Made by a program: the position numbers and the translations under genes. Shown one piece after another: positions 1-5,206 of a stretch of DNA of 5,206 nt. The number at the start of each line of letters is the position of its first letter. Within the stretch, counting starts at the first letter, position 1. The stretch is taken from IMG/VR virus record IMGVR_UViG_2740892423_000010, positions 1 through 5,206 of that record, one strand, 5' to 3'. Source of the stretch: a virus (lineage: Duplodnaviria > Heunggongvirae > Uroviricota > Caudoviricetes). Below the pieces are notes generated by a model. The model did not search any database. It was not told the origin of the DNA and saw only the letters and a program-made list of their open reading frames with translations.

Positions 1-87
1 CTCACTGAAGCTGAGAGCTTCTTCGCCTTCGGCAAGGCCTTCGAAGTATTCTTCGTAAGCCTTTTCCATGATTGTGTCGAAATCCAT
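1..87 (-). CDS. Partial small acidic hypothetical protein (start at 87, runs off left edge of window); translation begins MDFDTIMEKAYEEYFEGLAEGEEALSFSE
   Basis: Open frame on minus strand from ATG at 87..85 through position 1 with no stop. The ATG lies 1 nt after the upstream gene's TGA (TGATATG), suggesting coupled translation. Position matches a ydfB-like gene after ydfA in Qin-type prophages, but identity is not confirmed. Confidence 0.4.
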   Translation of the reverse strand, partial: MDFDTIMEKAYEEYFEGLAEGEEALSFSE

Positions 88-88
88 A

Positions 89-244
89 TCACTCGCCTGA
101 ATTTCTTTCCAGCCAGCGACGAGCGCCAGTTTCGGTTTTAAACGTTTTGCTTTTGGTATACGTCATCGCGGTGAATGTGCCGTCCTGGTTGGGAAACACG
201 CCGTATACCAGAGATTCGTTGTTGCCAAGATCGATAGTATCCAT
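89..244 (-). CDS. ydfA: Small phage protein, YdfA-like (51 aa: MDTIDLGNNESLVYGVFPNQDGTFTAMTYTKSKTFKTETGARRWLERNSGE)
   Basis: Minus-strand ORF ending with TGA at 91..89. I prefer the internal ATG at 244 because it is preceded by a GAGG Shine-Dalgarno about 5 nt upstream and gives a 51-aa product that matches my recollection of E. coli Qin-prophage YdfA. The ORF track's longer version starts at 322 (77 aa). Confidence 0.55.
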   Translation of the reverse strand: MDTIDLGNNESLVYGVFPNQDGTFTAMTYTKSKTFKTETGARRWLERNSGE

Positions 245-420
245 GTTGACCTCATTTCCCCTTAACGCCGGGGGAGCGGAACAAAAACCTGCTGCATAGT
301 TAAAGTTGAACCCTGCCGTCATGTTCTTACGCCTCGGGCTGGCTACTTATCCCCTGACCACTGCCTGGTAACTCGAGGTATTGCCCTGCGTTCTGTGGGG
401 CGGGGTGGGTTGGTGGAAAT

Positions 421-464
421 AATCTACAATTAAAAACTGTTTTGTGTCAACAGTTTTTAATTGT
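421..464 (-). promoter_or_regulatory. Operator-overlapping promoter for the ydfA-like operon: palindrome ACAATTAAAAACTGT-N9-ACAGTTTTTAATTGT (426..464) with minus-strand -35 TTGACA (450..445) and -10 TAGATT (426..421)
   Basis: Perfect 15-bp inverted repeat with 9-bp spacer read directly from sequence. On the minus strand the spacer contains a consensus TTGACA, followed 18 nt later by TAGATT. Near-identical to the palindrome at 1462..1500. Confidence 0.55.
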
Positions 465-473
465 TGGGCTGGG

Positions 474-501
474 TAAAAAAAACTCCCTCGAATGAGGGAG
501 T
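474..501 (-). terminator. Rho-independent terminator ending the repressor-antitoxin-toxin operon
   Basis: On the minus strand: GC-rich hairpin ACTCCCTC-ATTC-GAGGGAGT (501..482) followed by a run of 8 T (plus-strand A-run 475..482), placed 17 nt after the toxin stop at 518. Confidence 0.6.
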
Positions 502-517
502 ATGAAAATTGTTCAGT

Positions 518-805
518 TCAGATAGGGAAGGGAAATTGTCGGCGGGCATGCACAATATTTGCAATTTCAATGCTTGAAGCTGCTACTCGGTACAAAACGA
601 TATAATTAGGGTGAACCACAATTTCCCGCAAACCGGATACTCGATCACTTGGCGGATATAGATATGGATGCTCGGAGAGGGCTAAAACAGACGTTTCAAT
701 ACGTATTTTTAGTCTGCGTGCTGCAGGAATATTTTCCTTAGCAATATAGGCTACGATCTGACGCAAATCATCGCGAGCAGATGGTAGCCATAAAATGGGT
801 AACAT
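518..805 (-). CDS. parE: ParE/RelE-family type II toxin (95 aa)
   Basis: Translation has the ParE-like pattern (N-terminal DL..I..YI helix region, C-terminal YRV...I.I..I.HARR). Its ATG overlaps the upstream antitoxin stop by 1 nt (TAATG on minus strand), typical of toxin-antitoxin coupling. Confidence 0.88.
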   Translation of the reverse strand: MLPILWLPSARDDLRQIVAYIAKENIPAARRLKIRIETSVLALSEHPYLYPPSDRVSGLREIVVHPNYIVLYRVAASSIEIANIVHARRQFPFPI

Positions 806-996
806 TACTCGCTCCTGTTAGTTACAGCAATTTGAGCAATAAGATTTTCTATTTCAGCCATTACCTCGTCATGTGGAATTGAGGGACGAGGGTCTGCAAG
901 GCTTGACGCCACTTTAGCGCGCAACCATTCGTTGTAACTGTTTTCTTGTTCGGTAGTTTCGAATTCTGAAACTATCGGAGAAAGGGCTGTACTCAT
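805..996 (-). CDS. paaA: Small antitoxin, PaaA-like (ParE-associated antitoxin), 63 aa
   Basis: 63-aa ORF directly upstream of and overlapping the toxin start. Strong RBS (GAGGAG, about 7 nt spacing). N-terminal half (ALSP.VSEFET.EQENSYNEWLRAKVA.SLADPRP.IPHDEV) matches my recollection of PaaA2 from E. coli O157:H7; family assignment is not search-verified. Confidence 0.8.
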   Translation of the reverse strand: MSTALSPIVSEFETTEQENSYNEWLRAKVASSLADPRPSIPHDEVMAEIENLIAQIAVTNRSE

Positions 997-1023
997 GGCA
1001 TAACTCCTCTTCTTGTACAGTGG

Positions 1024-1425
1024 TCATGCCCGGCGGCTTTTTTGTGCCGCCAACCACCGGGCAATGGTTTCTTCCATTGATTTTTTCTTGTCTTTGATTT
1101 CTTGAAGCATTTTTTCTTGGTCTTCCTCTGGAAACGCACTAAAAGCCTGGAGCAGTTCGCGTTGGCGAGGGCCAATTTTCATCGTGTCAGGGGTGAAAAT
1201 TTGCTCCCCCTCTTCAGGAGGCAATAAAAACCAATGCAATGGATGCCCTGTAACCTCAACCAGTTTATCCAAACTTGAGGCTTTAGGTGTAGCCTTACCG
1301 CTGACCCATTGTTGAACAGTTTGTTGTGTCACACCAATTCTACGGGCCAGCTCAGCCTGGCTCCATCCAGTTTCCTGAAGAAGCTTGCTGATTCTGTACA
1401 TAGATACTTCTAGAGCGTTCATCAT
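1024..1425 (-). CDS. paaR: HTH XRE-family phage repressor, DicA/PaaR-type (CI analogue), 133 aa
   Basis: Helix-turn-helix motif (WSQAELARRIGVTQQTVQQWVSG) plus a C-terminal segment (ELLQAFSAFPEEDQEKMLQEI) resembling DicA-type repressors. Divergent from a Cro-like gene and co-oriented with the antitoxin/toxin. No SD before the ATG at 1425, but a TAAAAT -10 sits 6 nt upstream, suggesting a leaderless mRNA. Alternative in-frame start at 1401 (MYRISK...). Confidence 0.85.
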   Translation of the reverse strand: MMNALEVSMYRISKLLQETGWSQAELARRIGVTQQTVQQWVSGKATPKASSLDKLVEVTGHPLHWFLLPPEEGEQIFTPDTMKIGPRQRELLQAFSAFPEEDQEKMLQEIKDKKKSMEETIARWLAAQKSRRA

Positions 1426-1534
1426 TATTCAATTTTACAGGTAAATACTGTTAAAAGCATCACAATAAAAAACTGTTGATCGCGTACAGTTTTTTATTGT
1501 AGGCTTTGCCTGTAGTTTTTTAGAGGAGGGCAAA
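1426..1534. promoter_or_regulatory. Divergent immunity control region: operator palindrome ACAATAAAAAACTGT-N9-ACAGTTTTTTATTGT (1462..1500), candidate plus-strand promoter for the Cro-like gene (-35 TTGATC 1476..1481, -10 TAGGCT 1500..1505), candidate minus-strand repressor promoter (-10 TAAAAT = plus 1432..1437)
   Basis: Perfect 15-bp inverted repeat with 9-bp spacer read from sequence. Promoter hexamers are by-eye matches to sigma70 consensus. The plus-strand promoter and operator have the same geometry as the 421..464 unit. Strong RBS AGAGGAGGG (1522..1530) before the ATG at 1535. Possible degenerate half-site TGTAGTTTTTTAG at 1511..1523. Confidence 0.6.
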
Positions 1535-1807
1535 ATGCTAGATAGCACTCGCGAAAAAATTAGGCAGAAATACACTCAAGCTGAAATAGGTCGTTATATG
1601 GGGGTCGCTCAACAGACTGTTTGGCAATGGTTTAGCTTTGGTGTTCCCCCAAAGCAGGTAATTCCGTTATGTCAGCTAATGAAGTGGGAAGTTACCCCGC
1701 ATGAAATTCGCCCTGATATTTATCCTAACCCAACCGACGGGCTGCCTTGTGGAAATAAGTGTATGGCGAATGAATCTCTGGCGGTGAACAATGAAAATCA
1801 CCCCTGA
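1535..1807 (+). CDS. ydaS: Cro-like HTH regulator, YdaS family (90 aa)
   Basis: Strong RBS. HTH motif (AEIGRYMGVAQQTVWQW) followed by a VTPHEIRPDIYPNPTDG segment that I recognise as characteristic of YdaS-type Cro analogues. Divergent from the repressor gene. Confidence 0.85.
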   Translation: MLDSTREKIRQKYTQAEIGRYMGVAQQTVWQWFSFGVPPKQVIPLCQLMKWEVTPHEIRPDIYPNPTDGLPCGNKCMANESLAVNNENHP

Positions 1808-2342
1808 ACAGGTTCGTGAGGCTCTGGATGCCTGGGTATGCCGACCAGGAATGACACAGGAGCAGGCGACGATATTAATCACGGAAGCATTCTGGGCTCT
1901 GAAAAAACGCCCGAACATTGATGTTCAACGCGTCACGTTTGATGATGGCGCGGTTGATCAACGGGCGCTGGGCGTTAACCGGGTGAAGATATTCGAACGC
2001 TGGAAAGCTATCGACACCAGGGATAAGCGTGAAAAATTCACGGCGCTGATTCCGGCAATTATGGAGGCTATCCGGATCAGCGATTTCAGGTTGTATTGTG
2101 AAATTACTGACGGAAAAAGCATTACGTACATGATCGCCGGGTTAAACAAAGAATATGGCGATGTGGTGGAGTCCGGGCTGCTTTTTGCGGATCCAGCTGT
2201 TGTGGAACGTGAGACTGACGAGCTTATAGAAAAAGCTATTGCTTTCAAGCACGCGTATCGTCAGCAATACCAATATTACTTTGCAGATAAACAAATATCT
2301 GTCTGGGGTTCGTATGAGTATCGATGCACTACGATGGGCTAA
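1791..2342 (+). CDS. ydaT: YdaT-like protein (CII-analogue candidate), 183 aa
   Basis: ATG at 1791 overlaps the ydaS-like 3' end by 17 nt (coupled translation). Position immediately after a YdaS-type Cro matches the ydaS-ydaT pair of Rac/CP-933-type prophages. Family assignment rests on position and recalled similarity, not a search. Confidence 0.7.
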   Translation: MKITPEQVREALDAWVCRPGMTQEQATILITEAFWALKKRPNIDVQRVTFDDGAVDQRALGVNRVKIFERWKAIDTRDKREKFTALIPAIMEAIRISDFRLYCEITDGKSITYMIAGLNKEYGDVVESGLLFADPAVVERETDELIEKAIAFKHAYRQQYQYYFADKQISVWGSYEYRCTTMG

Positions 2343-3354
2343 AAAGGTGAAAACCGGCAGTTCATCCAGTAAGTCAGTATTGACCTGGCTTGCTGATATG
2401 TGCGGTGCCGATTTGTGTGCATACCCGTCTGTATCTGCCCTGGCAGAAGTAACGGAACTGAACAAAAAGACTGTGCAGGACAGCTTACGACACCTGATGG
2501 AGATTGGGTTAATTGTTGATACCGGTGAGAGAAAAGGCAGAACAAAGCAAATTGTGGTGTACCGACTTATCGGTGTAGAAGAAAGTGTTGCCGAGCCTGA
2601 ATACACCCAAAAACGGGAGTCTTTAAAGGTGGGTAAAATTGGTGCTGTTAATAAAAACAGTACCGAAAACGGTTATGTTTCAGCACAAAACAGACCCAAA
2701 AACGGAACTCTTAACTGCATGGAAAATAACCAAAGACACCCAAATTTTCCATTAAAGACACCCAAAAACGGATCACGGAACCCAAAGGAACCCAAAGATC
2801 TAAACCCCACACATAACGCACGCGAGAGTGCTCCGACCAGTGAGCAGGAAGTTTTGTCGTTACAGGCAGTGCCACCCGTATTCCTGGATGGCCTGAGCGA
2901 ACCCATCGGAAAATTTCCGATGACCGATAGCTGGCATCCGTCACGGGATTTTCGACGACGGGCTGCGTTGTGGGGGATGGCTTTGTCGGAGCCGGAATTT
3001 ACACCTGCTGAACTTGCCGCATTCCGGGATTACTGGAGCGATGAGGGCAAAGTGTTCACGCAGGTTCAGTGGGAGCAGAAATTCGCCCGTCACGTAAATC
3101 ACGTCAGGGCGCAGGTTAAACCAGTCAGCAAGGGGGTAAACCATGCAGCAGCACCAGGTGGCACCGCATCACGGGCAGTTCAGGAAATTCGGGCAGCACG
3201 TGAGCAGTGGGAACGTGAAAACGGATTTATCAGCGACGGAAACGGCGTGGAAGCTGTGGGAACTCATGGGGGAGGTTTATTCGAACCGCTGGACCCAGAA
3301 GAACGGGGCCGCACCTTCGAAGCTCTGGATTGCACAGATTGGCGCGATGACTGA
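2314..3354 (+). CDS. Replication initiator (lambda O functional analogue): N-terminal winged-helix domain plus C-terminal DnaT-like domain, 346 aa from ATG 2314
   Basis: N-terminus (LRWAKKV...SVSALAEVTELNKKTVQDSLRHLMEIGLI) resembles replication-initiator wHTH domains. C-terminal segment GKFPMTDSWHPSRDFRRRAALWGMALSEPEFTPAELAAFRDYWSDEGKVFTQVQWEQKFAR closely resembles the C-terminal region of E. coli primosomal protein DnaT as I recall it. The ORF track starts at a TTG (2239); I prefer ATG 2314, which has a GGGG SD-like element 5 nt upstream. Confidence 0.8.
   Translation: MSIDALRWAKKVKTGSSSSKSVLTWLADMCGADLCAYPSVSALAEVTELNKKTVQDSLRHLMEIGLIVDTGERKGRTKQIVVYRLIGVEESVAEPEYTQKRESLKVGKIGAVNKNSTENGYVSAQNRPKNGTLNCMENNQRHPNFPLKTPKNGSRNPKEPKDLNPTHNARESAPTSEQEVLSLQAVPPVFLDGLSEPIGKFPMTDSWHPSRDFRRRAALWGMALSEPEFTPAELAAFRDYWSDEGKVFTQVQWEQKFARHVNHVRAQVKPVSKGVNHAAAPGGTASRAVQEIRAAREQWERENGFISDGNGVEAVGTHGGGLFEPLDPEERGRTFEALDCTDWRDD
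2603..2799. repeat. Iteron-like direct repeats (consensus about GACACCCAAAAACGG) inside the initiator gene linker; candidate origin of replication
   Basis: Direct repeats read from sequence: ACACCCAAAAACGG 2603..2616, AGACCCAAAAACGG 2692..2705, GACACCCAAA 2735..2744, GACACCCAAAAACGG 2757..2771, GGAACCCAAAG 2778..2788 and 2788..2798, with a degenerate copy ACCGAAAACGG at 2662..2672. Several start-to-start spacings are about 22 bp or multiples. They encode a low-complexity PKNG-rich linker between the two protein domains. Confidence 0.5.
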
Positions 3355-3808
3355 GCAGCAAATCCGTCAGGTCTGCCGCCAGTGCATGGACCGCTGCCGG
3401 ACGGGTGAAACATGGCCTCCGGACCTGGCTGAGTTTGTGGCGCTGATTTCGGAGAGTGGGGCAAATCCATTTGGTCTGACGGTGGATGCTGTGATGGAGG
3501 AGTACCGCCGCTGGCGCAATGAGTCTTGGCGATACGACGGAAGTGATAAGTACCCGTGGTCTCAGCCTGTGCTGTATCACATTTGCCTCGAGATGCGTTC
3601 AAAGGGGATTGAGCGCCAGATGACCGAAGGGGAATTAAAACGGCTTGCAGAACGGCAACTGACGAAATGGGCAAAGCATGTTGGTAACGGACTGAGTGTT
3701 CCACCCGTCCGTAGGCAACTGGCAGCACCCATACGTCCTGCGGGACCAACGCCAATTGAGTTGCTGAAACAGGAATATGAACGCAGGAAAGCGGCTGGTT
3801 TTGTTTGA
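3143..3808 (+). CDS. Lambda P-like replication protein (helicase loader), 221 aa
   Basis: Strong SD (AGGGGG 3131..3136, 6 nt before ATG 3143). Translation ([14 protein letters not shown] ... [15 protein letters not shown] ... [10 protein letters not shown]) parallels lambda P as I recall it (PFLPSPGQFVAWCRE ... YPWKSNAHYWLVTNL ... ELRRKAADEL). Overlaps the 3' end of the initiator gene by 212 nt in a different frame. Confidence 0.8.
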
Positions 3809-3842
3809 GTTGAGAAGTAATTTTTACCGGGAGGAAATTTTA

Positions 3843-4613
3843 ATGGAAACCGTTTTTGATGCACTGAAAGCAATGGGAAAAGCCACGTCGGTGGAACTGG
3901 CCGCGCGACTTGATATCAGTCGTGAAGAAGTGCTGAACGAGCTGTGGGAACTCAAAAGAAATGGCGTCGTTGATAAAACAGGTCATACCTGGTTTCTGGC
4001 TGGTGAAGGTGAATCCGGGGTAACCGAAGAGCAGCCAGTACAATCTGAAGCACCGGATGTGCTAACCGGGGTGGGCGAACAAAAAGTTACCGCTGACATG
4101 ATGATTGAGTTTATCGGTCAGGAGGGGGCTAAAACGTGTGAGGAACTGGCGAGTAAGTTCGGTGTCAGCACTCGCAAGGTTGCTTCCACGCTGGCGGTAG
4201 TAACCGCAACGGGGAGGCTGGCACGCGTTAATCAGAACGGTAAATTTCGTTACTGCATACCGGGCGATAATTTACCAGCAGAACCGAAAGCCGCATTGGT
4301 AGCGGAAACTGATGGTAAATCCTTTCCTCAGCCAGCGGGGGTTGCGTTACCAGTACAGGAGGTTGCAACACAGGAAGATATTAAAACAGAAACTGTGGCG
4401 GACATTGTGCAGTCGTTGCCATCGTTCACTGAAACGCGAGCCAATGGCCTGATTTTACCATCTCTGCATATGGCAAACCGCGAACTTCGCCGGGCGAAAA
4501 GTCATGTCCAGAAGTGGGAGCGAGTCTGCGCCGCGCTGCGGGAGCTGAACAAGCACCGGGATATTGTCCGACAGATTGTCGATTCCTCCAGTCGTATTGT
4601 GTCGGAAAAGTGA
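3843..4613 (+). CDS. Hypothetical phage protein with two tandem winged-helix-like modules and a basic C-terminal helix, 257 aa
   Basis: Strong RBS (GGGAGG 3830..3835, 7 nt before ATG 3843); the ORF track's upstream ATG at 3777 has no usable SD and overlaps the P-like stop. Two internally similar wHTH-like segments ([30 protein letters not shown] and [30 protein letters not shown]). Function unknown. Confidence 0.7.
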
Positions 4614-4629
4614 TTCCAGGGGAGGGCTT

Positions 4630-5052
4630 ATGGCAAAAGTATCTACACAGGAAGAGCGGGAAAAAATTAAAGGGCAGGTTGTTGAACTCGTACGCCAGAG
4701 TGGGCGTGAGACGTTACGACAACTGGAAGCGAAAACAGGTGCGACAAGATATCTGATGAGCGTTCTCGCCAGAGAGCTGGTTGCCAGTGGCGATGTATAC
4801 AACTCTGGTTACGGGTTATTTCCGTCTGAACAGGCGCGTAAGGACTGGCAAAACGCCCGCAAAAAACTCTCAAGGGCAAAGGTGAAGAAAACGGCTGTGG
4901 TTGATCCGGACCTTATCAGGTCATTACCTGACGGAGAAATACGCCGCTACGACAGGCGTCAAAACATAATTTGCCGTGAGTGCCGGAAAAGCGAAGTTAT
5001 GCAGCGTGTACTGGCGTTTTATCGGGGAAACTTTCAGGAGGTGATGCTGTGA
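4630..5052 (+). CDS. Hypothetical phage protein with one winged-helix-like module, 141 aa
   Basis: Strong RBS (AGGGGAGGG 4618..4626) before ATG 4630; the ORF track's TTG at 4564 overlaps the previous gene. Segment ETLRQLEAKTGATRYLMSVLARELVASGDV resembles the wHTH modules of the upstream gene. Basic, Lys/Arg-rich C-terminal half. Confidence 0.65.
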   Translation: MAKVSTQEEREKIKGQVVELVRQSGRETLRQLEAKTGATRYLMSVLARELVASGDVYNSGYGLFPSEQARKDWQNARKKLSRAKVKKTAVVDPDLIRSLPDGEIRRYDRRQNIICRECRKSEVMQRVLAFYRGNFQEVML

Positions 5053-5206
5053 GCGAATCAAAATGTCAGGTTAATAGCAATCAGATAGAACCATGTGCGG
5101 TACTGGCAAAAGCCCTTGAGCATGATGCTGAATACACGACGCGAAAAGGTCTGCTGATATACAAAATCTGGAATGAGAGTTTAACTCGCGGCCCTGATTT
5201 GGTGAT
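5049..5206 (+). CDS. Partial hypothetical CDS (candidate GTG start at 5049, runs off right edge); VSESKCQVNSNQIEPCAVLAKALEHDAEYTTRKGLLIYKIWNESLTRGPDLV...
   Basis: Open frame to the window end. GTG overlaps the upstream stop (GTGA) and is preceded by AGGAGG (5036..5041). No family recognised. Confidence 0.3.
   Translation, partial: MSESKCQVNSNQIEPCAVLAKALEHDAEYTTRKGLLIYKIWNESLTRGPDLV

Follow-up and report, generated by a model that had tools for sequence, protein, structure and literature searches.

The characterized bistable switch of this family is paaR2-paaA2-parE2/ydaS-ydaT of the E. coli O157:H7 prophage CP-933P (PMC8630535), for which structures of YdaT (PMC9986795) and of PaaA2-ParE2 (PDB 5cw7 and 3zbe) are available. 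In these homologues PaaR2, YdaS and YdaT are the analogues of CI, Cro and CII, a leftward-type promoter termed PL933P has been described, and both bistability and plasmid stabilization were documented (PMC8630535, PMC9986795, PMC4803016). Transcription of the whole operon is reported to start at a promoter preceding paaR; this promoter is partially repressed by the PaaA-ParE complex and full repression needs PaaR (PMC4803016, PMC8630535). The transcription start of paaR2 was mapped to its ATG, making the message leaderless, and PaaR2 is reported to be devoid of an S24 autocleavage domain (PMC8630535). What ParE2-type toxins act on in the cell has yet to be established (PMC8630535), and no cross-neutralization is reported between PaaA1 and ParE2 (PMC4803016). 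A homologue on CP-933M is cited in PMC8630535, and the name PaaA1 is used in PMC4803016. A toxin-antitoxin (TA) pair under a lysogeny repressor has been described in O157:H7, where it was proposed to stabilize the immunity region so that it is not lost or replaced. The CP-933M homologue was reportedly named paaR1-paaA1-parE1 by Hallez et al. in 2010.

We analysed a 5,206-nucleotide stretch of viral DNA (IMG/VR record IMGVR_UViG_2740892423_000010, positions 1 to 5,206), referred to as the window. In all likelihood it comes from a lambdoid, Rac/CP-933-like E. coli prophage with immunity of the CP-933M/Sp4 type, and holds the immunity (lysogeny-switch) region of that prophage. The genes, their families and order are collected in Table 1, together with the repeated sites and the terminator found in this analysis. 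A preliminary description of the same DNA had placed an HTH repressor gene upstream of, and co-oriented with, genes for a 63-aa antitoxin and an overlapping toxin, with a terminator after the toxin and YdaS- and YdaT-like genes diverging from the repressor; the open reading frames, the sequence and the profile matches all agree. Its identification of the locus with the paaR-paaA-parE/ydaS-ydaT switch of O157:H7 prophages, an already known system, also holds in gene order, sizes and families, and the module is carried by Sp4; the paralogue is nevertheless of the CP-933M type, heteroimmune to CP-933P, where bistability was shown. The span given there (518-1807) lacked the terminator and, at 421-464, the OL/PL-like element, as well as the greater part of ydaT. 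The repressor-PaaA-ParE arrangement is thus real but ordinary, known from O157:H7 prophages and present in about one in ten complete E. coli genomes.

Table 1. Features of the immunity region, in coordinates of the window.
Feature	Position	Strand	Basis
PL-like sigma-70 promoter, leftward	421..450	-	consensus scan; predicted
OL-like operator, 39-bp palindrome, two 15-bp sites	426..464	.	motif and palindrome search; predicted
Intrinsic terminator, end of repressor-antitoxin-toxin operon, analogue of lambda t_imm	482..501	-	hairpin and T-run
ParE-family toxin, ParE1-type allele, 95 aa	518..805	-	ORF list, Pfam, PDB match
PaaA-type antitoxin, 63 aa	805..996	-	Pfam, NCBIfam, PDB match
PaaR1-type immunity repressor, 133 aa	1024..1425	-	Pfam HTH_3, Sakai match
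PRM-like -10 hexamer TAAAAT	1432..1437	-	sequence reading; inferred
OR-like operator region, three 15-bp sites	1437..1500	.	motif and palindrome search; predicted
PR-like promoter for ydaS-ydaT	1476..1505	+	sequence reading; inferred
YdaS-type Cro analogue, 90 aa	1535..1807	+	Pfam, PHROG
YdaT-type CII analogue, 183 aa	1791..2342	+	Pfam, PHROG

All three minus-strand proteins score above the curated cut-offs of their families (ParE_toxin, PaaA2 and HTH_3), at levels far from those of chance. The repressor, an HTH protein of the DicA type, matches Pfam HTH_3 at 50.8 bits (1.7e-13, cut-off 23); the match to the NCBIfam DicA model itself fell under its cut-off. The protein consists of an N-terminal 434-like HTH and a C-terminal region resembling the DicA-type C-terminus. 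With Sakai ECs_1069, annotated as 'phage repressor protein', it shares 97.7% identity, and its last 98 aa share 42% with PaaR2 (E=2e-20). The closest solved relatives in a PDB sequence search were 434 repressor chains; the search returned only such 434-type HTH domains and no PaaR-like structure. Pfam sees only HTH families in the 133-aa protein, and the S24 peptidase (autocleavage) domain is absent; therefore, RecA-driven induction is not expected. The earlier terms 'Lambda-type' and 'CI-like' are apt as functional analogy but not as family assignment: the repressor is a CI analogue in position and role, outside the lambda CI/LexA-type autocleaving family.

On the divergent side, YdaS matches Pfam YdaS_toxin (38.8 bits, 8e-10, cut-off 30) and phrog_35 (3.4e-22). 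Its residues 1-71 are those of Sp4 YdaS, and it shares 42% identity over 57 aa with the HTH of the repressor, both carrying the recognition-helix motif QQTVxQW. YdaT matches Pfam YdaT_toxin (26.4 bits, 9.8e-06, cut-off 21) and phrog_163, 'CII-like transcriptional activator' (1e-41). Its sequence is 97% identical to STEC005 YdaT, compared to 23-25% overall for the YdaT proteins of Sp4 and CP-933P (37% over the N-terminal 95 aa for CP-933P), and by these identities it is of another subtype than either. The CP-933P YdaT operator, TTGATT-N6-AATCAA, was not found in the window, where the sole match, at 3856, has two mismatches and is at chance level; the inverted-repeat search of the ydaS/ydaT junction (1640-1900) also returned nothing, and no PRE/YdaT site is assignable. 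Because neither element was found, the window gives no support to the CII-like part of the circuit. Genes for DnaT-like and lambda-P-like replication proteins follow ydaS-ydaT (Pfam), and PHROG assigns a replication initiator and a P-like helicase loader besides the CII-like activator. No Rfam family matched the window at gathering thresholds. Among the PADLOC models, the toxin, antitoxin, YdaS and YdaT had no match, and the repressor had generic HTH matches only.

The antitoxin is a PaaA. It matches Pfam PF21217 PaaA2 at 76.9 bits (1.1e-21, cut-off 27), NCBIfam NF050103 at 94.1 bits (cut-off 50) and the PaaA2 structure 3zbe (E=4.4e-22), and is 88.9% identical to Sakai ECs_1068. Its profile matches are to PaaA2 and a short RelB-family antitoxin model and to none else; no DNA-binding domain was found in it with Pfam and NCBIfam, and no ParD or RHH domain. 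Antitoxin and toxin genes share base 805, which belongs both to the antitoxin stop TAA (807-805) and to the toxin ATG (805-803). The operon ends 16 nt past the toxin stop at the hairpin ACTCCCTCATTCGAGGGAGT, followed by T7, at 501..482 on the minus strand; the stem has 8 bp, five of them G-C pairs, and the loop 4 nt. Two terminator-like sites lie on the operon strand, both 3' of the toxin stop: this G+C-rich hairpin and the A+T-rich OL palindrome. Such a distribution is consistent with co-transcription of the three genes.

With their position behind the repressor gene, the TA genes would be made together with it. One alternative is that PaaA-ParE is an independent, self-regulated type II pair, transcribed from a separate promoter inside or behind the repressor gene, and with expression untied to the immunity switch. 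Such a cassette does work without PaaR elsewhere: in other Proteobacteria, 77 of the 80 loci encoding ParE relatives have an adjoining PaaA-like antitoxin gene and no PaaR-like gene. Here, paaA is preceded by a 27-nt gap and a strong Shine-Dalgarno of its own (AGAGGAG, 1010-1004), and partial repression of the paaR promoter by the PaaA-ParE complex is reported (PMC4803016). Against this stand the scan of the minus strand between the repressor gene and paaA, which returned no promoter-like or terminator-like site, the antitoxin without a detectable DNA-binding domain, and the O157:H7 homologues, which reportedly are co-transcribed from upstream of paaR and require PaaR for full repression (PMC4803016, PMC8630535). 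The linkage of repressor and TA pair in some 510-520 genomes also argues against independence, and we judge this alternative improbable.

That linkage was read from 5426 complete E. coli genomes. The repressor/OR segment is present in 510 of them and the whole module, TA pair included, in 520, so in these genomes the repressor appears essentially never to occur without the TA pair. This fits the addiction hypothesis. One genome matches the immunity segment at 99.7%. The window is a mosaic, and for this reason a megablast search with its full length found no one place in the complete E. coli genomes that covers 80% or more. In the phage collection a ParE relative is encoded by one record only, phage Evi, and is of the CP-933P type and unannotated there.

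We read three putative promoters around the repressor operon. The consensus promoter scan passed a single site, the PL-like promoter, with a -35 TTGACA (450-445), an 18-nt spacer and a -10 TAGATT (426-421), 10 of the 12 hexamer positions matching consensus; PR and PRM scored below the threshold and were read by eye. The PL-like promoter points away from the TA operon, toward the DUF1391/dicB-side genes, and its function is suggested by analogy with PL933P (PMC8630535). The PR-like promoter, with -35 TTGATC (1476-1481), an 18-nt spacer and -10 TAGGCT (1500-1505), lies upstream of a Shine-Dalgarno GAGGAGGG at 1523-1530 before ydaS, and the geometries of the PR-like and PL-like promoters are mirror images. 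In the PRM-like promoter, the -10 hexamer TAAAAT is followed by 6 nt and then by the repressor ATG at 1425, without a Shine-Dalgarno. The same spacing (GATAAT, 6 nt, ATG) occurs upstream of paaR2 in CP-933P, and by this likeness the repressor mRNA is probably leaderless.

The operators of phage 434 read ACAA-N6-TTGT. The 15-bp motif ACAR-N7-YTGT has five matches in the window, all at OR or OL, compared to 0.43 expected, a number reached by none of 200 shuffles. Two of these sites, ACAATTAAAAACTGT (426-440) and ACAGTTTTTAATTGT (450-464), form the OL-like palindrome, whose arms are 100% complementary and which is 76-80% identical to the OR palindrome. The remaining three are 24-25 bp apart in OR: ACAGGTAAATACTGT (1437-1451) inside PRM, ACAATAAAAAACTGT (1462-1476) centred at about -44 of PRM and touching the -35 of PR, and ACAGTTTTTTATTGT (1486-1500) in the spacer of PR and touching its -10. 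The two 39-bp palindromes are separated by 1036 bp and bracket the operon. All five sites are also present in Sakai Sp4, the three OR sites unchanged. The divergent promoter region and the PL-like promoter beyond the TA genes would, by these repeats, have predicted operators in common. A very improbable alternative is that the 39-bp palindromes act in RNA, as hairpins or terminators, or else mark module boundaries as hot-spots of recombination. The palindrome at 426-464 does score as a terminator-like site of 16 pairs on the minus strand, and it is close to the mosaic boundary on the left side of the immunity module; yet the stems of the palindromes are A+T-rich, with three G-C pairs only and no proper T-run after them, and at OR the same element sits between the start codons of divergent genes, a place in which a terminator would serve no purpose. 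Moreover, the third, single OR site (1437-1451) ends likewise in ACAG...CTGT, PR and PL show the same geometry of overlap between the sites and the -35 and -10 hexamers, and both regulators have a 434-like QQ recognition helix. These points favor binding sites for the repressor and YdaS.

The toxin was expected to give a significant ParE-family match, and it did so, at 59.1 bits to Pfam PF05016 ParE_toxin (6.6e-16, cut-off 23) and with E=1.2e-37 to the solved O157:H7 ParE2 chain (5cw7). It is 65% identical to ParE2 of CP-933P and 86.3% identical to Sakai ECs_1067, and E. coli SC407 has an annotated toxin gene (WP_000936798.1) with 100% DNA identity to that of the window. That the toxin would be a ribosome-dependent mRNA interferase of the RelE type, and not a ParE-type toxin directed at DNA or topoisomerase, is hardly credible: the fold is common to ParE and RelE, the RefSeq name is 'RelE/ParE family toxin' and NCBIfam RelE_StbE scores 26.1 bits, slightly below its cut-off of 27.9, but the top profile is ParE_toxin and the 65% identity is to ParE2, which reportedly co-localizes with the nucleoid and induces the SOS response (PMC8630535).

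Taken as a whole, the locus lends itself to a mechanism in which co-transcription, repression, bistability, toxicity and addiction would carry over from the work on homologues. The leftward operon would be read in the order PaaR1-type repressor, PaaA antitoxin, ParE toxin as far as the intrinsic terminator, and the divergent rightward operon would supply YdaS as Cro analogue and YdaT as CII analogue, then the replication genes. The repressor and YdaS, with near-identical recognition helices, may compete for the three ACAR-N7-YTGT operators over PRM/PR and also for the two at the PL-like promoter beyond the terminator; such competition would yield a two-state switch. PaaA would neutralize ParE through direct binding. 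Upon loss or replacement of the immunity module the supply of antitoxin would stop and the more stable toxin would be freed, acting as an addiction device that stabilizes the immunity region. The biological role of the TA pair is in this respect a proposal, and the earlier claim that the locus couples immunity state to toxin expression was an overstatement: both switch states of CP-933P show transcription of the TA genes, and in neither could ParE2 activity be detected (PMC8630535). The window is a clean, intact case of a TA pair under a prophage lysogeny repressor. For the CP-933M-type paralogue it offers a predicted operator layout that can be read as 434-like, three sites being at OR and two at OL; the detailed regulatory work on this family was done on CP-933P.

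The nearest of the described systems is CP-933M/Sp4 (Sakai ECs_1069-1067). The five genes and their order are the same, and the first four genes are equal in length (133, 63 and 95 aa, and the 90-aa YdaS), with 83-98% protein identity; the terminator and the flanking DUF1391 gene are also common to both. From about 1748 rightward, the window has the other ydaT subtype and other replication genes. A divergent patch occupies the core of the toxin gene (about 542-761): over the gene, DNA identity to Sp4 is 78.8% and dS is 1.36, compared to 95-97% DNA identity for the adjoining genes and a dS of 0.05-0.12 for antitoxin and repressor. The antitoxin has seven amino-acid changes from nine base changes. 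The dN/dS of the toxin against Sp4 is 0.06, which points to strong purifying selection acting on the toxin. One speculative reading, to which we give a low probability, is that the toxin core is an anciently diverged allele recombined into an Sp4-like operon, perhaps a third PaaA/ParE specificity class insulated from ParE1 (Sp4) and ParE2 (CP-933P). If this were true, prophages that share an immunity family and a host cell could each have an addiction module of their own, and the toxin swap would have been followed by adaptive retuning of the antitoxin (seven of the nine base differences change an amino acid).

CP-933P (Sp12) has the same architecture, with a repressor-antitoxin-toxin operon, divergent ydaS-ydaT, and OR and OL operators, which in the window are predicted ones. 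As in the window, its -10 lies six nt before the repressor ATG and its repressor has no peptidase domain. Identity to the window is 63.5% for the antitoxin, besides the 65% for the toxin and the 42% for the C-terminal 98 aa of the repressor given above. The immunity specificity differs: the repressor HTH cannot be aligned with that of the window and the YdaS proteins have no detectable similarity. The operators of CP-933P are repeats of the consensus GTTTAGTAA, unrelated to ACAR-N7-YTGT (PMC8630535). A comparison locus (L004) considered as CP-933P type was rejected on its repressor, which starts MTTLE instead of MQKKE; another locus (L005) is the true CP-933P type.

The layout is also that of lambda and 434, where the repressor operon is likewise bracketed by OL/PL and OR/PR, with the sites in the window being predicted ones. 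In those phages OR has three sites overlapping PRM and PR, as predicted for the window (about 24-25 bp apart), accessory genes follow the repressor gene, and a terminator precedes PL. Lambda has rexA-rexB where the window has the TA pair, and the counterparts of lambda Cro and CII are analogues from the YdaS and YdaT families. The classical ParD-ParE systems of the RK2 type share with the window a ParE toxin, a small upstream antitoxin and overlapping genes. In those systems the antitoxin is a ribbon-helix-helix protein that autoregulates, whereas in the window PaaA has no RHH domain and transcriptional control would fall to the product of a separate repressor gene (PMC8630535).

The arrangement of the locus is best explained, and very probably correctly so, by a switch in which the repressor and YdaS (the Cro analogue) would hold two alternative states and the repressor operon would also encode an addictive PaaA–ParE pair. 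A mechanical list of open reading frames (ORFs) returned exactly the gene coordinates of the preliminary description (see table). The overlap of the toxin start with the antitoxin stop was seen again, base 805 being common to both (TAATG on the minus strand), as was the terminator following the toxin, a G+C-rich 8-bp hairpin and then seven T on the minus strand (501..482), 16 nt past the toxin stop. On that strand only one more terminator-like site was found, namely the A+T-rich palindrome of the OL region (464..426), further downstream. Independent transcription of the toxin–antitoxin (TA) module is improbable: no terminator-like site was found on the operon (minus) strand inside the repressor–antitoxin–toxin operon, and for the O157:H7 homologues a promoter upstream of paaR is described as driving co-transcription of the whole operon (review, PMC4803016).

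Genes and promoter-like elements of the immunity region (genes from the mechanical ORF list)
Feature	Position	Strand	Details
PL-like promoter	450..421	-	TTGACA-18-TAGATT; one 15-bp site touches -35, the other occupies the spacer as far as -10
ParE-family toxin	518..805	-	95 aa
PaaA-type antitoxin	805..996	-	63 aa
Repressor	1024..1425	-	133 aa
PRM-like -10	1437-1432	-	TAAAAT, 6 nt ahead of repressor ATG
PR-like promoter	1476-1505	+	TTGATC-18-TAGGCT
YdaS	1535..1807	+	90 aa
YdaT	1791..2342	+	183 aa

The operon is flanked by two 39-bp palindromes (426-464 and 1462-1500, 1036 bp apart), whose arms are all 15-bp sites bounded by ACAR...YTGT; one more such site, unpaired, is found at 1437-1451. A search of the 5.2 kb for ACAR-N7-YTGT gave these five sites and no others (0.43 expected; five reached in 0/200 shuffles), and the same five recur in prophage Sp4, nearly unchanged in the alignment. 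That the palindromes are hairpins and not operators is very unlikely; one of them does read as terminator-like, and sites 1462-1476 and 1486-1500 stand to the PR-like promoter in exactly the geometry seen at the PL-like promoter. There is no Shine-Dalgarno sequence ahead of the repressor ATG. The spacing of the PRM-like hexamer equals that in CP-933P (GATAAT, 6 nt, ATG), where mapping placed the transcription start of paaR2 at the ATG. The PRM-like promoter contains site 1437-1451, and the centre of site 1462-1476 is ~44 bp upstream of the presumed start; the three predicted OR sites have the layout of lambda OR3/OR2/OR1.

The helix-turn-helix (HTH) domains of the repressor and YdaS are 42% identical and share the recognition-helix motif QQTVxQW, which resembles the QQSI helix of 434 repressor in an alignment with solved relatives; the best of these for the repressor are 434 repressor HTH domains. 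The 434 operators read ACAA-N6-TTGT. The sites in the window are similar but one base longer, and the ACA/TGT ends of the predicted 15-bp sites fit those operators. This predicted operator and promoter map of CP-933M-type immunity is an addition of the present analysis.

The family searches that the preliminary description had proposed agreed with its assignments, save that the relation of the repressor to DicA (NCBIfam) scored below the cut-off. In NCBIfam the antitoxin scores as a RelB-family TA antitoxin (94 bits; cut-off 50). In Pfam, where every match given here passes its curated cut-off, the toxin is ParE_toxin (6.6e-16), the antitoxin PaaA2 (1.1e-21) and the repressor HTH_3 (1.7e-13) with other HTH families; no peptidase domain was found in it. 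The rightward genes are YdaS_toxin (8e-10) and YdaT_toxin (9.8e-06), the ydaT product also matching a CII-like transcriptional activator in PHROGs (1e-41). The toxin aligns with the solved O157:H7 ParE2 chain (5cw7, E=1.2e-37) and the antitoxin with the PaaA2 chain (3zbe, E=4.4e-22). A RelE-like rather than ParE-like activity of the toxin is very unlikely on these matches.

By pairwise BLAST, 1-282 and 1780-5206 are ~96% identical to a prophage of strain STEC005 that lacks a TA pair and whose repressor is of DicA type and whose Cro-like gene is a different one; 113-2273 matches an ompW-integrated prophage of strain SC407 at 98% identity, and 1-1836 matches Sp4 at 91%. This three-segment pattern marks the immunity module (about 283-1779) as a cassette swapped among lambdoid prophages, as is usual, with boundaries at about 282/283 and about 1748-1780. 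The right boundary lies inside the last 20 codons of ydaS, which is therefore chimeric. YdaT belongs to a 183-aa subtype, 97% identical to that of STEC005 and 23-25% to the 141-aa YdaT of Sp4 and CP-933P. Since the window lacks the published YdaT operator and a search of the ydaS/ydaT junction gave no inverted repeat, the CII-like limb cannot be mapped in the window. Downstream of ydaT, PHROGs identifies a replication initiator gene and one for a P-like helicase loader. The DUF977 protein has its match in a PHROG family called Ren-like exclusion protein. The DnaT-like/O-like initiator gene contains three exact copies of ACCCAAAAACGG (2605-2616, 2694-2705, 2760-2771) with related GGAACCCAAAG motifs nearby; the copies are probably origin iterons. 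The lambda origin likewise sits inside gene O. The mechanical longest ORFs 2239-3354, 3143-3808, 3777-4613, 4564-5052 and 89-322 overlap heavily and begin upstream of the RefSeq starts of the 96%-identical STEC005 genes (1041, 462, 771, 423 and 156 nt); the true starts probably lie within these ORFs, near 2314, 3347, 3843 and 4630.

A survey of 5426 complete E. coli genomes found segment 330-1810 (1481 bp) at >=80% coverage in 520; in the closest of them (99.7%) the annotation reads RelE/ParE toxin, RelB-family antitoxin, HTH protein, transcriptional regulator and YdaT. The repressor and OR segment taken by itself occurs in 510, so that the repressor goes with the TA pair in essentially every case. 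Escherichia phage Evi was the sole member of the phage collection to encode a toxin relative, of CP-933P type. In its record (LR597642.1) this ParE2-type ORF (24917-25192; L006 3001-3276), 67% identical to the toxin of the window, is unannotated, while the PaaR2-like regulator and antitoxin-sized ORF upstream are both annotated. The closest toxins in species-representative genomes, from Beta- and Gammaproteobacteria, reach at most 63% identity. In 77 of 80 such loci (L007-L086) the ParE relative adjoins a PaaA-like antitoxin (about 60-65 aa, without a DNA-binding domain), and none of the 80 has a convincing PaaR homologue, which fits the published idea of a two-gene cassette inserted into the immunity region.

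The feature is real, and the first reading of it was correct in pointing to the paaR-paaA-parE / ydaS-ydaT switch of O157:H7; its suspicion that the system was known is borne out, the arrangement being already described and common in E. coli. O157:H7 Sakai holds two places that match the TA segment, the better being Sp4 (=CP-933M), with the same genes and gene lengths. Its repressor is 97.7%, antitoxin 88.9%, toxin 86.3% and YdaS 83% identical to those of the window, residues 1-71 of YdaS being unchanged. The toxin gene has 78.8% DNA identity to that of Sp4, compared with 95-97% for the neighbouring antitoxin and repressor segments, and its differences cluster at operon positions 236-455 (about 542-761 of the window). 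For the toxin dS is 1.36 (saturated) and dN/dS 0.06; for the antitoxin dS is 0.05, and 7 of 9 differences change an amino acid. The toxin core thus looks like a recombination patch bearing an old allele. PaaA1 does not neutralise ParE2, nor the reverse pair (PMC4803016). The specificity of the divergent toxin allele is a testable question and, with the operator map, a testable addition to the known system.

CP-933P is much more distant. Against the locus of O157:H7 SS17, whose repressor starts MQKKE as published, the toxin is 65% and the antitoxin 63.5% identical, the repressor aligns over its C-terminal 98 aa only (42%), YdaT is 37% identical across its N-terminal 95 aa, and YdaS has no significant similarity. 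The CP-933P immunity region comprises the three-gene operon paaR2-paaA2-parE2, with PaaR2, YdaS and YdaT as analogues of CI, Cro and CII, a leaderless paaR2 and a PL933P promoter; its expression is bistable, the locus is addictive, and CP-933M carries a homologue of the operon (PMC8630535). The preliminary description held that immunity state is coupled to toxin expression. That view calls for moderation: both switch states of CP-933P show transcription of the TA genes, toxin activity was detected in neither, and the role proposed for the pair is to stabilise the immunity region. Closer identity to Sp4 than to CP-933P, together with the literature, identifies the window, as judged from sequence comparison, as the CP-933M-type paralogue.
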